Source: a plasmid
DNA: 1,549 bases
Assembly (NCBI RefSeq): GCF_988243305.1
Contig: NZ_OZ547142.1
Direction: 5' to 3' (one strand)
Shown here: piece by piece, positions 1-1,549 of the stretch
Numbering within the stretch: the first letter of the stretch is position 1
How the letters are laid out: each line of letters begins with the position of its first letter
Notes under the pieces: generated by a model
Database searches by the model: none
What the model saw: only the letters and a program-made list of their open reading frames with translations
What the model was told of the DNA's origin: nothing
Translations under genes and position numbers: made by a program

Positions 1-196
1 CACTGGTCAACAAAGACGGTGATATTCAGCGCCGAATCATGGCCATGTTTTCAAATTGAGCTAGCGGCAGGCGGACAATCAGGGGCTACGTGTTAACGTT
101 CTGACCATGATTGTCTATCCTGCATTGCTCTTTTGCCGCCTCAAAATCCTTTGCGTGTTTTTGCTCCCCGTTCTCCAGAAAAAACCGAGCCGCCAC

Positions 197-250
197 GGTT
201 CCGGCAGCGCCTTGAGCGCTACCGGAAACCGTCTGGGGAGAACCCCAGAC
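197..250 (+). other. Two adjacent GC-rich hairpins in the non-coding region
   Basis: Hairpin A: TTCCGGCAGCGC (199-210) pairs with GCGCTACCGGAA (216-227), 11/12 with a C205/A221 mismatch, loop 211-215. Hairpin B: GTCTGGGG (231-238) pairs perfectly with CCCCAGAC (243-250), loop AGAA. Confidence 0.5.
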
Positions 251-326
251 CCCCATCGCTGCAACACCGACGGTCTACGACCACCTACCAACCGCATGGC
301 TGCCTGTTCCGTGCAAATGGGCTTTG

Positions 327-350
327 CAGGGGGCTGGCGCGGTTCCTGGC
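327..350 (+). other. Candidate ColE1-type origin motif (G-run plus GGTTCCTGGC), i.e. possible RNA primer to DNA transition region
   Basis: CAGGGGGCTGGCGCGGTTCCTGGC shares CAGGGGG and the 10-mer GGTTCCTGGC with the pMB1 ori region (...GTCAGGGGGGCGGAGCC...ACGGTTCCTGGCC...) in the same orientation as the two stronger matches downstream. Spacing differs from pBR322, so this is tentative. Confidence 0.25.
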
Positions 351-524
351 GACCTGAAAGCCCCTGGTTAGGGGTATCGGCGCGCTTGACCTCCTGAGAG
401 CCTCTGTAAGCGTTTTTCGCGCCTTCCATGCCCTGGCGGGCATCTAAAACCCGTTTCGTGCGTCTGAGAGCTTTTGAGCGCGTTTGAGGGGCTATCTGGC
501 GACTCATCCCCAAAAGAACAACAC

Positions 525-558
525 CGGGATCACAGACAACATGCGAGAGGTGATCCCG
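525..558. other. Hairpin (9-bp stem, 16-nt loop) abutting the conserved backbone segment
   Basis: CGGGATCAC (525-533) pairs perfectly with GTGATCCCG (550-558). Confidence 0.5.
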
Positions 559-626
559 CTCGCCGCAAGTCGATGACCGAGCGTAGCGAGCGAATCGACG
601 AGGAAGCGGAAGAGAACCGGAAGCCA
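551..626 (+). other. Conserved ColE1-family origin-distal backbone segment (region where pMB1-type plasmids carry primosome assembly sites)
   Basis: TGATCCCGCTCGCCGCAAGTCGATGACCGAGCGTAGCGAGCGAATCGACGAGGAAGCGGAAGAGAACC aligns by eye at about 75% identity to the reverse complement of the pUC/pBR322 stretch ...CTTCCGCTTCCTCGCTCACTGACTCGCTGCGCTCGGTCGTTCGGCTGCGGCGAGCGGTATCAG... That orientation is RNAII-sense. Confidence 0.55.
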
Positions 627-680
627 CATTGAGCACTTACGCACTGATGCGGGGTGTCGGGGTGAAGCCCTGACCAAGTG

Positions 681-727
681 GTAATCGTATCGGCGTGCAT
701 GCGCGGTTATACGATTACACATCCTGT
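681..727 (+). other. Perfect 10-bp inverted repeat followed by a CATCCTG|T motif (IncP/MOBP-type nic consensus YATCCTG|Y); candidate relaxase recognition site
   Basis: GTAATCGTAT (681-690) and ATACGATTAC (709-718) are perfectly complementary, with an 18-nt spacer containing GCATGC. CATCCTGT at 720-727 begins 2 nt after the proximal arm, putting the putative nick (726/727) 8 nt from the repeat. An 8-mer of this kind can occur by chance. Confidence 0.3.
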
Positions 728-839
728 CCCGATTTCTGAGGCGTTTTAACGGTGAACGGACGGCAAAAACACGATGGAGCTGTTGAACGTGAAAACCACG
801 AAATCTGGCAAAAATCACGGCTGGCGAGGCTTGCATAGG

Positions 840-902
840 TGTAAGCCAGTATACACTCCGCTATCGCTACGTGACTGGGTCAGGGCTTCGCCCCGACACC
901 CC
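840..902 (-). other. ColE1/pMB1-type bom (oriT) nic region homolog; predicted nick on the minus strand
   Basis: The + strand GCCAGTATACACTCCGCTATCGCTACGTGACTGGGTCAGGGCTTCGCCCCGACACCCC (845-902) is near-identical to the pBR322 bom segment as I remember it (GCCAGTATACACTCCGCTATCGCTACGTGACTGGGTCATGGCTGCGCCCCGACACCC). The complementary strand carries ACTGG|CTTA, which I recall as the ColE1 nic sequence; this places the nick between the complements of 846 and 845. Confidence 0.6.
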
Positions 903-904
903 CA

Positions 905-933
905 AAGGGCGTTGCGTGCAACGCAACGCCCTT
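905..933. other. Perfect hairpin / 29-bp near-palindrome (13-bp stem, 3-nt loop) at the module junction
   Basis: AAGGGCGTTGCGT (905-917) pairs base-for-base with ACGCAACGCCCTT (921-933), loop GCA 918-920. No U-tract follows on either strand (GCCTAGAATAG on +; TGGGGGTG on -), so it is not a canonical intrinsic terminator. Confidence 0.6.
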
Positions 934-935
934 GC

Positions 936-997
936 CTAGAATAGATCTTTTACGCCGATTTGTAAGTGGTTGTTTTTTTAGTGTGTTTTTTATTTAC
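936..997. other. AT-rich tract with T-runs between the GC-rich backbone and the operator sites
   Basis: Sequence GATCTTTTACGCCGATTTGTAAGTGGTTGTTTTTTTAGTGTGTTTTTTATTTACC has T7 and T6 runs. Composition changes abruptly here relative to upstream. Confidence 0.5.
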
Positions 998-998
998 C

Positions 999-1046
999 TG
1001 TCGCATCCTGGATGACACAACGTTGTCGCATCCAGGATGCGACAAC
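999..1046. promoter_or_regulatory. Two tandem palindromic operator-like sites (25-bp period) immediately upstream of the -35 region
   Basis: Copy 1 (999-1021, TGTCGCATCCTGGATGACACAAC) and copy 2 (1024-1046, TGTCGCATCCAGGATGCGACAAC) match at 20/23 positions. Copy 2 lies in a perfect 25-bp palindrome (1022-1046, 12+1+12, centre A1034). Copy 1 is an imperfect palindrome around T1009. Core of each is CATCC-N-GGATG. Confidence 0.55.
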
Positions 1047-1048
1047 AC

Positions 1049-1063
1049 GCAACAAGGTGTTGC
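1049..1063. other. Short hairpin (6-bp stem, 3-nt loop) overlapping the putative -35 hexamer
   Basis: GCAACA (1049-1054) / AGG loop / TGTTGC (1058-1063), perfectly complementary arms. Confidence 0.4.
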
Positions 1064-1089
1064 ACAGATGTGTCATGATGGCTTAGATT
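1060..1089 (+). promoter_or_regulatory. Putative sigma70-type promoter for the rep-like ORF
   Basis: TTGCAC at 1060-1065 (5/6 to TTGACA), 18-bp spacer, TAGATT at 1084-1089 (4/6 to TATAAT). Position is appropriate, about 45 bp upstream of the ATG. Hexamer assignment is by eye only. Confidence 0.3.
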
Positions 1090-1117
1090 TGAACCAACGT
1101 TAGTGCATGGGATTTTC

Positions 1118-1124
1118 AGAGGGA
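1118..1124 (+). promoter_or_regulatory. Shine-Dalgarno sequence for the 1132 ORF
   Basis: AGAGGGA contains GAGG at 1119-1122, 9 nt upstream of the ATG at 1132. Confidence 0.6.
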
Positions 1125-1131
1125 AAAAATC

Positions 1132-1549
1132 ATGTTTATTGATTCAGAAAAACGACTGAAACAACTTTCAGATGAGGCAAAGAAAAACACCGAGGATCTC
1201 GAAGAAGCAAAGAAAAATTCAAGGTTTACACAGGTATCCCCAAAAGGTTGGGAACGTGTTCGAGAGCTGCTGAAGGATAGCCAAGGCATATCAGCACTGA
1301 AGCTGTACTCATTTTTAGCGGAGCATATCGATCCTACGTGTGGCGCTGTCGTTGCGGATCAGCAATTCCTAGCTGAAAAACTTGGAGTTAGCAGAAGCAC
1401 AATTATTCGGTGGCTCAATTACTTAGAATCAAAAAATGCATTAGTTAGAATCCCCGTTGCTGGTAAGGTTTGTGCGTATGCCCTCGATCCACATGAAGTC
1501 TGGAAGGGATACAACACTACGAAAAACCATGCAGCGTTTGTCACTAAAA
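1132..1549 (+). CDS. Partial ORF (3' end beyond window) encoding a winged-helix DNA-binding protein with RepL-like replication-initiator architecture
   Basis: ATG at 1132 is the first start after an in-frame TGA at 1090-1092 and is preceded by AGAGGGA at 1118-1124. 139 codons read without a stop to the window end, which is presumably why it is absent from the ORF track. Translation begins MFIDSEKRLKQLSDEAKKNTEDLEEAKKNSRFTQ (charged, K/E-rich) and continues ...ISALKLYSFLAEHIDPTCGAVVADQQFLAEKLGVSRSTIIRWLNYLESKNALVRIPVAGKVCAYALDPHEVWKGY. The helix-turn-helix followed by G-x-hydrophobic-x-A-L-(N/D)-P-x-E pattern matches my recollection of staphylococcal pSN2-type RepL (Pfam RepL family). Family assignment is from memory, not a search. 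Confidence 0.6.
   Translation, partial: MFIDSEKRLKQLSDEAKKNTEDLEEAKKNSRFTQVSPKGWERVRELLKDSQGISALKLYSFLAEHIDPTCGAVVADQQFLAEKLGVSRSTIIRWLNYLESKNALVRIPVAGKVCAYALDPHEVWKGYNTTKNHAAFVTK

Follow-up and report, generated by a model that had tools for sequence, protein, structure and literature searches.

The window, i.e., the whole stretch of DNA that was analysed (1,549 nucleotides), was found to be a circular rotation of the cryptic E. coli plasmid pKL1 (NC_002145), with 99.2% identity, and dozens of public circular records of 1549 bp matched it end to end, also as rotations, with identities of 99.5–99.7%. It is a 1549-bp circle with one gene, collinear with pKL1, which is the arrangement of the pKL1/Col(MG828) family, and its replicon type was Col(MG828). 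Since the circle is closed, nothing lies outside the window. The first-pass annotation had considered that the window might be the 3' half of one replicon together with the 5' start of another, with the 5' part of RNAII and the rest of a rep-like gene missing; the contig edges proved instead to be those of a whole circle, in which the open reading frame (ORF) starting at 1132 runs through 1549 into 1–59 and ends at base 59. The public 1549-bp records carry the same 477-nt CDS annotation. The features of the circle are the following.

1132–1549, plus strand: repA, codons 1–139 and the first base of codon 140 (ORF and translation; the gene crosses the circle junction).
1–59, plus strand: 3' end of repA, with the rest of codon 140, codons 141–158 and the stop codon (circular translation, 158 amino acids).
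73–127, plus strand: IncX4-type (R6K-like) oriT-like site, in which TATCCTG/C (116–123) comes directly after the 11-bp inverted repeat GGACAATCAGG/CCATGATTGTC (from IncX4 similarity).
186–650, unstranded: GC-rich conserved non-coding block, 80–94% identical in about 460 small plasmids.
556–652, plus strand: segment in common with ColE1/pMB1, at the ssiA/n'-pas position, with GAAGCGG at 603 (74.7% identity to ColE1 1309–1405).
650–735, plus strand: IncI-complex (K/Z-type, R64-like) oriT-like site, with outer repeat GGGGTGTCGGGGTGAAGCCCTGACC, inner inverted repeat 681–718 and nick motif CATCCTG/T at 720–727 (from IncK2/Z similarity).
833–906, minus strand: ColE1-type bom/oriT (nic region), oriented opposite to the I-complex site (93.2% identity over 74 bp to ColE1 1455–1526).
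905–933, unstranded: perfect 13-bp stem with a 3-nt loop, between the transfer and replication regions (inverted repeat I7, 100% complementary).
935–998, unstranded: AT-rich stretch, GC content down to 44–47%, with an IHF-like site at 963–975 (minus strand, one mismatch; IHF consensus scan).
999–1046, unstranded: putative RepA operator/origin repeats, two 23-nt units in a near-perfect palindrome, each centred on CCWGG (repeats D1, I3 and I9).
1060–1124, plus strand: candidate repA promoter with TTGCAC at 1060–1065 and TAGATT at 1084–1089, and Shine-Dalgarno sequence AGAGGGA at 1118–1124 (by eye; a weak candidate).

Twelve single-base differences separate the window from the pKL1 record, all of them non-coding. 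Among them is a paired T/A swap at 1009 and 1034, which are the CCWGG centres of the operator repeats, and four of the twelve are located in the 905–933 hairpin (three in the loop at 918–920 and one in the stem at 928). The plasmid was present in 323 of 5,426 complete E. coli genomes (about 6%), and the family was found across many genera. It is already known and common, and its discovery value is small; pKL1 of E. coli KL4 has reportedly been available as a sequence since 1997, with studies of RepA biochemistry, in work ascribed to Burian et al. 1997, 1999 and 2003.

An initiator gene had been proposed about 230 bp past the backbone, and the ORF start at 1132 does lie 226 bp after bom. The product, RepA, was identical in 158 of 158 residues to pKL1 RepA (WP_000469298.1), so that its designation as an initiator stood; its designation as RepL-type was reduced to a weak profile match. 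When the protein encoded by the ORF at 1132 was checked against Pfam profiles, the significant family was HTH_36 (PF13730; E=3.5e-8), which also matched 11 of 13 relatives, whereas RepL (PF05732) remained below threshold with 17.0 bits (E=0.0043, model positions 54–128 of 164). Nearly all of the 120 listed close RepA homologues carried PF13730, not PF05732. Among 13 family members the RepL profile was detected in 12 at E<=0.1 and in two at E<=0.001; for a relative with 45% identity RepL was the top Pfam match (E=4e-4) and also the name given by PGAP. The PHROG match of RepA was "replication initiation protein" (E=1.2e-6), and searches of NCBIfam with RepA and four relatives gave nothing above any curated cut-off. 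An AlphaFold model of moderate quality (mean pLDDT 71, built from a 13-sequence alignment) showed a winged helix, with pLDDT values of 78–93 over residues ~41–120; a PDB sequence search and Foldseek with the model yielded no specific initiator structure, only generic winged helices of the MarR/ArsR/GntR kind. From its identity to pKL1 RepA, the protein of this copy would be a winged-helix initiator and autorepressor.

The operator that had been suggested before the rep gene was recovered as the palindrome at 999–1046, which as single-stranded DNA folds with −20.4 kcal/mol (z = −7.5). Each relative possesses its own distinct repeat pair of 21–29 bp before its own rep gene. PMC3832669 places the oriV of pKL1 upstream of repA, with an IHF box, RepA-binding sites and a 16-bp perfect inverted repeat, and reports replication to be RepA-dependent; the mechanism of initiation and autorepression by RepA has reportedly been shown by experiment for pKL1. 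Both a palindrome and an IHF-like site upstream of repA, a feature of the pKL1 family, are present in the window. The putative operator at 999–1046 is the counterpart of the 16-bp perfect inverted repeat published for pKL1, and the stretch 935–998 is presumed to be the unwinding part of the RepA-dependent origin. A consensus sigma-70 promoter was not found at the threshold of the scanner. RepA would bind to the repeats at 999–1046, just upstream of its own promoter, would start replication at the adjoining AT-rich region with the IHF site, and would repress repA.

The proposed mosaic make-up was confirmed: the GC content is 58–63% at 150–675 versus 39–46% in the rep module, and each of the two parts has its own set of relatives. 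The approximately 1 kb outside repA is devoid of a conserved protein-coding gene, and no mob gene is present on the plasmid. ORFs 107–397 (plus strand), 133–357 (plus strand) and 115–636 (minus strand) were discarded as genes, due to frameshifts and in-frame stops in relatives. PGAP has assigned the label "replication protein" to the 41-codon ORF 504–629 (minus strand), the same label as in ColE1, which is a mislabel; this mini-ORF, and the "hypothetical protein" annotated in non-conserved frames, are unlikely genes.

The suggestion of a phage-plasmid was not supported, since the circle has one gene and the full-length "phage" matches are mislabelled copies of the plasmid. Neither phage structural or lysogeny genes nor homology to phage genomes were detected in the window or by a search of a phage collection. 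Two unannotated records of 1.4–1.6 kb in this collection were the pKL1-type plasmid itself, a 1.9-kb record had the non-coding backbone in common with the window, and the other matches comprised a pBR322-type vector, further records of 1.5–5.3 kb, and short stretches resembling oriT or vector DNA. A phiX174 match at 547–614 was due to a pBR322-type vector record and is not phiX DNA. Public annotation of the pKL1-type plasmid is misleading, with some copies deposited as phages.

The non-coding block 186–650 is accompanied in the small plasmids mentioned above by initiators which are 25–45% identical or unrelated; parts of the block recur in IncX1, in IncX4 (there before pir) and in a Shigella plasmid of 5.2 kb (there before rep). 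We infer a cis-acting role for the block, as a priming or origin-proximal module. It ends in the segment 556–652, which by its position would be the ssiA/n'-pas primosome assembly signal (for the role of ssiA in ColE1, see PMC3167613), and it probably would aid complementary-strand priming, the weakest step of the proposed mechanism. The same block could be regarded as the real functional core, for example an origin dependent on host factors or a gene for a regulatory RNA, with the RepA-proximal repeats being merely an operator. Its conservation next to such divergent initiators would fit, as would several stable hairpins and its location: in unchanged orientation it always precedes an initiator gene, pir of IncX4 among them. 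However, the oriV of pKL1 is beside repA according to PMC3832669, the block matched no Rfam family, and a consensus fold of 186–470 from seven homologues showed weak covariation (5 of 61 pairs, with an unfavourable covariation term). A terminator-like site at 208–189 is not kept in relatives, and the block is GC-rich, unlike an unwinding element. This alternative is considered unlikely, and a RepA-dependent origin next to repA is preferred.

Three sites resemble origins of transfer. The IncX4-type site at 73–127 has two counterparts in an IncX4 plasmid, inverted copies with identities of 85% and 93%; one of these copies is situated directly upstream of ddp1/taxA and taxC, and the pair flanks the IncX replication region. 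About 97 conjugative records contain a site of this type, mostly in two copies each. R6K is likewise said to have two oriTs, a result attributed to Avila et al. 1996. The sequence TATCCTG/C at 116–123 is a MOBP nick motif, and the hairpin fold of 73–127 had z = −3.2; in L007 the repeat has another sequence with the pairing retained, and the nick motif is unchanged. Since the identity to the IncX4 oriT copies is only 85%, recognition of the site by TaxC/TaxA is uncertain. The I-complex site at 650–735 (fold z = −3.1) is 97.7% identical over 86 bp to an intergenic site of an IncK2/Z plasmid, which immediately precedes the nikA-like mobA and the relaxase gene, and this K/Z-type variant was found on 126 conjugative records. 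Sister plasmids have other inner repeats with compensating arms, and lineages with identical RepA carry differing I-complex variants, each of which matches a distinct NikA/NikB set; the IncI1-type variant of pJJ1886_1 was found adjoining IncI1 NikA/NikB. The third site is the ColE1-type bom, whose earlier identification proved correct at 833–906. Its outer repeat 874–902 forms with 651–679 a 29-nt inverted repeat (I1, 93%), and about 1,900 plasmid records, mostly mobilizable, have only the bom stretch in common with the window.

The nick motif YATCCTGY occurs twice in the window versus 0.14 expected occurrences, each time directly 3' of a hairpin, and the motifs are fixed across diverged relatives, while the inverted repeats vary with compensation. 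Relaxases from co-resident plasmids would most likely nick and transfer the plasmid at the three oriT look-alikes (IncX4-type, IncI-complex K/Z-type and ColE1-type), and these sites probably allow it to ride on larger conjugative plasmids. The label "mobilizable" given by MOB-suite denotes oriT similarity only. On the other hand, the oriT-like sequences might be inert scars of recombination with ColE1, IncI-complex and IncX plasmids, with spread being vertical or by transformation or transduction only; this would agree with the lack of a mob gene, with the typing of some family members as "non-mobilizable", and with copies in phage-particle sequence sets, which are compatible with transduction. 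Such an explanation is improbable in view of the invariant nick motifs beside compensating repeats, of the I-complex variants which match separate NikA/NikB sets in lineages with identical RepA, and of the presence of the family in many genera. Moreover, a plasmid 99.7% identical to pJJ1886-1 reached MG1655 alongside an IncI1 plasmid, both appearing together in the transconjugants (PMC4382111). Use of the sites by relaxases of helper plasmids is thus preferred.

A ColE1-type RNA-primed origin, as claimed in the first-pass annotation, was not borne out: there was no RNAI and no homology to RNAII, and similarity to ColE1 was limited to 556–652 and 833–906. Searching both strands for RNAI (Rfam RF00106) with permissive filters and a limit of E<=1 produced no match to this family and only one chance lncRNA match. 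The region 60–555, compared with the ColE1 RNAII region, gave a local-alignment score of 12.0, which equals the shuffle mean of 12.0, and blastn (word size 7) against ColE1 found nothing upstream of 556; an alignment of the upstream region to ColE1-type origins fails for 60–555, an outcome that the first-pass annotation had itself named as refuting its reading. A BLAST search for distant relatives of 60–556 retrieved about 820 records, not the ~1,900 bom-bearing ColE1-type plasmids. Homology to ColE1 begins at 556, about +115 nt beyond the RNA/DNA switch of ColE1, and the match in a pBR322-type vector record is situated ~50 bp past the annotated rep_origin. Judged from these alignments, the ColE1-like DNA is bom plus a stretch just downstream of the origin, the origin itself being absent; bom and DNA just past the ColE1 origin should not be equated with a ColE1 replicon. 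A dual replicon, in which a RepL-type replicon would be joined to a functional ColE1-type RNAII/RNAI origin and the 5' part of RNAII would lie outside the window, could invoke bom and the adjacent 97-bp ColE1-like stretch in ColE1 order and orientation as well as the PGAP label on ORF 504–629, but it has practically no chance given the closed circle with nothing outside, the RNAI and RNAII results, the start of homology past the switch, the ~1,900 plasmids without a match to 60–556, and the fact that a 550-nt RNAII, placed by homology, would begin inside repA; at the sequence level this model is refuted.

Very probably, the window represents one complete pKL1-type circle, i.e., a single RepA-dependent replicon without RNAII/RNAI, with three putative oriT look-alikes which are probably used in trans, and with a block 186–650, ending in the segment at the ssiA position, which probably aids priming. 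A wider reading, slightly more open to doubt than to belief and put forward tentatively, would see in the approximately 1 kb of "junk" three stacked oriT mimics, each specific for a helper (IncX4, IncK/Z/B/O, ColE1), together with a portable block for priming; the I-complex specificity cassette (K/Z here, IncI1 in pJJ1886_1) would be swapped among lineages whose RepA is identical, and 186–650 would act in cis as a hitherto undescribed module for replication or establishment. If true, hitch-hiking on several helpers, beyond copy number alone, could explain the persistence and spread of cryptic plasmids. A one-gene plasmid with three oriT types, whose lineages exchange specificity, would offer a testable reason for the success of a "cryptic" plasmid, which should be of modest interest for plasmid ecology.

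The closest counterparts are pKL1 and its twins, namely pO26-S1, pCE10D and a plasmid of 1549 bp from O104:H4 2011C-3493, which agree with the window in length, gene order, RepA and replicon type Col(MG828), at 99.2–99.7% nucleotide identity. Plasmid pJJ1886_1 (NC_022661, 1552 bp) has the same RepA accession and architecture and is 94% identical overall; its IncX4-type site is identical to that of the window and its ColE1-type bom is 97.6% identical, whereas its I-complex oriT has an inner inverted repeat of the IncI1 type, in contrast to the K/Z type of the window, with a site-wide identity of 79%. ColE1/pMB1 (pBR322) have bom/nic (93%) and the post-origin stretch (75%) in common with the window, in the same order and orientation; the window differs by being without RNAII, RNAI and rop, by its dependence on RepA, and by an I-complex oriT and spacer inserted between the shared segments. 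Plasmid pBuzz (Moran and Hall 2019), for which mobilisation by a B/O plasmid has been shown, and the relaxase-less oriT plasmids (pOriT; Ares-Arroyo et al. 2022) are, like the window, very small, without a relaxase gene and equipped with inversely oriented oriT copies from conjugative plasmids. Compared by description, pBuzz is taken as an analogue and not as a relative: it is a 1982-bp rolling-circle plasmid with two oriT copies of one complex, whereas the window combines a palindromic operator and a winged-helix RepA with three types of oriT.

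When all of the window was compared by megablast with 72,556 plasmid records, 332 of them covered 80% or more of its length; the best thirty matches were 99.5–99.7% identical, and nearly all of these were circular records of exactly 1549 bp. Positions 219–1549 corresponded to positions 1–1330 of the cryptic E. coli plasmid pKL1 (NC_002145) and positions 1–218 to pKL1 1331–1549, with 99.2–99.5% identity, which is a simple rotation of one circle. Due to this rotation and the circular twins of 1549 bp, the window represents one whole plasmid and not part of a longer contig; the molecule, which had been thought truncated, closes as a circle, with the rep ORF wrapping past the edge. 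Among its twins are pO26-S1, the plasmid of CE10 and a 1549-bp plasmid from the O104:H4 outbreak strain. Matching records were typed in PLSDB as replicon Col(MG828) and "mobilizable", and of the 5,426 complete genomes of E. coli, 323 carry the rep gene, nearly always on a plasmid. The window is a known and common plasmid, with 12 nucleotide differences from pKL1, all of them non-coding.

The first-pass annotation had proposed a ColE1-type RNA-primed origin, fused with its bom site to a second, RepL-type replicon. In sensitive blastn, ColE1 (NC_001371) matched the window only at 556–652 (74.7%; ColE1 1309–1405) and at 833–906 (93.2%; ColE1 1455–1526), the latter being a genuine ColE1-type bom. 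Pairwise alignment showed that the homology starts abruptly at CCGCTCGCCGCA, about 115 nt past the ColE1 RNA/DNA switch sequence, and that identity upstream of this point is at chance level; on the record of a vector of the pBR322 type, this ColE1-like stretch is found about 50 bp past the annotated rep_origin. Local alignment of window 60–555 with the ColE1 RNAII region gave a score of 12.0, equal to the shuffle mean (12.0), and 66 of 100 shuffles scored as well. RNAI was not found in the window with Rfam (E ≤ 1). A distant-mode search with 60–556 recovered about 820 records, mostly plasmids of 1.4–4 kb and IncX plasmids, and did not recover the approximately 1,900 ColE1-type plasmids which share the bom. 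The upstream region did not align to ColE1-type origins, the outcome which the first-pass annotation had itself named as a refutation. These comparisons show that a ColE1-type origin is absent, and the plasmid is not a dual replicon. Since the homology is limited to 556–652 and 833–906, and RNAII and RNAI are absent, the ColE1-like DNA is a transfer site plus a stretch at the position of the ColE1 ssiA/n'-pas primosome assembly signal (for its general role see PMC3167613), with ssiA being assigned by position only.

Two small proteins are annotated in public records, a 41-aa "replication protein" at 504–629 (minus strand) and a 96-aa "hypothetical protein" at 107–397 (plus strand). The former label was apparently transferred from a comparable mini-ORF of the ColE1 annotation, and none of the four relatives has the 96-aa frame intact; both ORFs are probably annotation artefacts.

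The region 186–650 is a GC-rich, non-coding block, 80–94% identical across some 460 small plasmids, the initiators of which share only 25–45% identity or are unrelated. It is always located upstream of an initiator gene, in the same orientation, and parts of it recur in IncX1, in IncX4 (ahead of pir) and in a Shigella plasmid of 5.2 kb (ahead of rep). Counterparts in five compared plasmids are as follows:

L007, 2852–3468
L008, 27–461
L010, 10470–10684
L011, 3698–4251
L012, 2516–2880

Long ORFs of the block are not conserved in the relatives; hairpins are present, with weak covariation. A priming or establishment module is our best guess for its role.

The ORF at 1132 continues into bases 1–59 on the circle, and its product of 158 aa is identical to RepA of pKL1. 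According to two reports (PMC3832669, PMC3526173), repA is the sole gene of pKL1, and oriV, upstream of it, holds RepA-binding sites, a box for IHF and a perfect inverted repeat of 16 bp. The expectation of a Rep gene with its own operator was borne out (a palindrome at 999–1046 stands in front of the gene); as to its family, the significant Pfam match was HTH_36 (E = 3.5e-8), compared to 17 bits and E = 0.004 for RepL (model positions 54–128). NCBIfam gave no match above cut-off, and PHROGs returned "replication initiation protein" (E = 1.2e-6). RepL was reached at E ≤ 0.1 by 12 of 13 aligned relatives, by two of them at E ≤ 0.001, and was the best Pfam match (E = 4e-4) of a 45%-identical relative, which PGAP names RepL. 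The weak score of RepA itself, together with the matches among its relatives, points to a distant kinship with RepL, for which "RepL-like" is a fair description, rather than to demonstrated membership. The AlphaFold model (mean pLDDT 71, confident over residues ~41–120) predicts a generic winged helix with a long N-terminal helix; no specific solved structural relative of the model was found.

Immediately upstream of repA are these features:

905–933, perfect hairpin with 13-bp stem and 3-nt loop
935–998, AT-richer stretch containing one IHF-like site (963–975)
999–1046, two 23-nt repeats forming a near-perfect palindrome

The palindrome, as single-stranded DNA, has a folding energy of −20.4 kcal/mol (z = −7.5). 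Each of four diverged relatives possesses its own repeat pair or palindrome of 21–29 bp just upstream of its rep gene, different in sequence each time, a pattern which would be expected if the repeats were binding sites of the respective initiator. Both half centres (1009 and 1034) are Dcm-type CCWGG sites, whose central W is T/A in the window and A/T in pKL1 and pJJ1886_1; the swap is paired, and the palindrome is preserved. The hairpin at 905–933 stands where the transfer region meets the replication region. It is no obvious terminator, because a T-run is absent; of the 12 differences from pKL1 it holds four, at three loop bases and one stem base.

Three different oriT-like sites were found on this one-gene plasmid:

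73–127, IncX4-type, 11-bp inverted repeat followed directly by TATCCTG|C
650–735, IncI-complex K/Z-type, ending in CATCCTG|T
833–906, opposite strand, ColE1-type (bom), by similarity to ColE1

An IncX4 plasmid has two inverted copies of the first, with identities of 85% and 93%, one of them lying directly upstream of ddp1/taxA and taxC, and the element occurs in about 97 conjugative records. The second is 97.7% identical to an intergenic site of an IncK2/Z plasmid, directly upstream of nikA-like and relaxase genes; its outer repeat and that of the bom form an inverted repeat of 29 nt. In the window there are two occurrences of the MOBP-type nick motif YATCCTGY (0.14 expected), both directly 3' of a hairpin (fold z about −3); nicks are predicted after G122 and G726 of the plus strand and, on the minus strand, within 833–870. 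When four diverged small plasmids were aligned with the window, the nick motifs proved invariant and the repeats showed compensating variation; each plasmid had a different inner repeat in the IncI-complex site.

GC content is 58–63% over 150–675 versus 39–46% over the rep module, which supports a mosaic origin, but another mosaic than the one first suggested. A phage-plasmid had also been considered; the plasmid is not one. Two records without annotation, OR844798.1 (1626 bp) and OR844749.1 (1423 bp), bear the names of Escherichia phages and match the plasmid with 99.1% identity over 92–100% of its length; probably they are mislabelled or represent plasmid DNA recovered with phage preparations. 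If this DNA were truly packaged, it would hint at transduction.

Among related plasmids, p99COLEC-3 (1506 bp) has an insertion of about 50 bases following the equivalent of window ~140; it includes GCAGGATAG (reverse complement of CTATCCTGC) and a TGACGTCA-type palindrome, and may be an additional nick-motif site in inverted orientation. NC_004833.1 (1488 bp, "Corynebacterium renale") has stretches 100% identical to the IncX4-type site of pKL1-type plasmids and to the IncI-complex site of pJJ1886_1, which points to an enterobacterial plasmid or an incorrect host assignment.

The plasmid pJJ1886_1 (NC_022661, 1552 bp) has the same RepA and is 94% identical overall, but only 79% across the IncI-complex site, the main difference being the inner inverted repeat (window 681–718, pJJ1886_1 31–70). 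Its variant, of the IncI1 type, matches 1,245 conjugative records, e.g., beside "IncI1-type NikA/NikB", and the K/Z variant of the window matches 126, beside a different NikA; this looks like the exchange of an oriT specificity cassette between lineages with identical RepA. A plasmid 99.7% identical to pJJ1886-1 was present in some MG1655 transconjugants following mating with an IncI1 donor (PMC4382111), which is indirect support for working oriT sites. Surveys of plasmids with only an oriT are available, and some plasmids with several oriTs have been noted (PMC10123127); mildly new points are only the putative layout with three oriTs and the apparent swapping of variants between lineages. A tested analogue is pBuzz.
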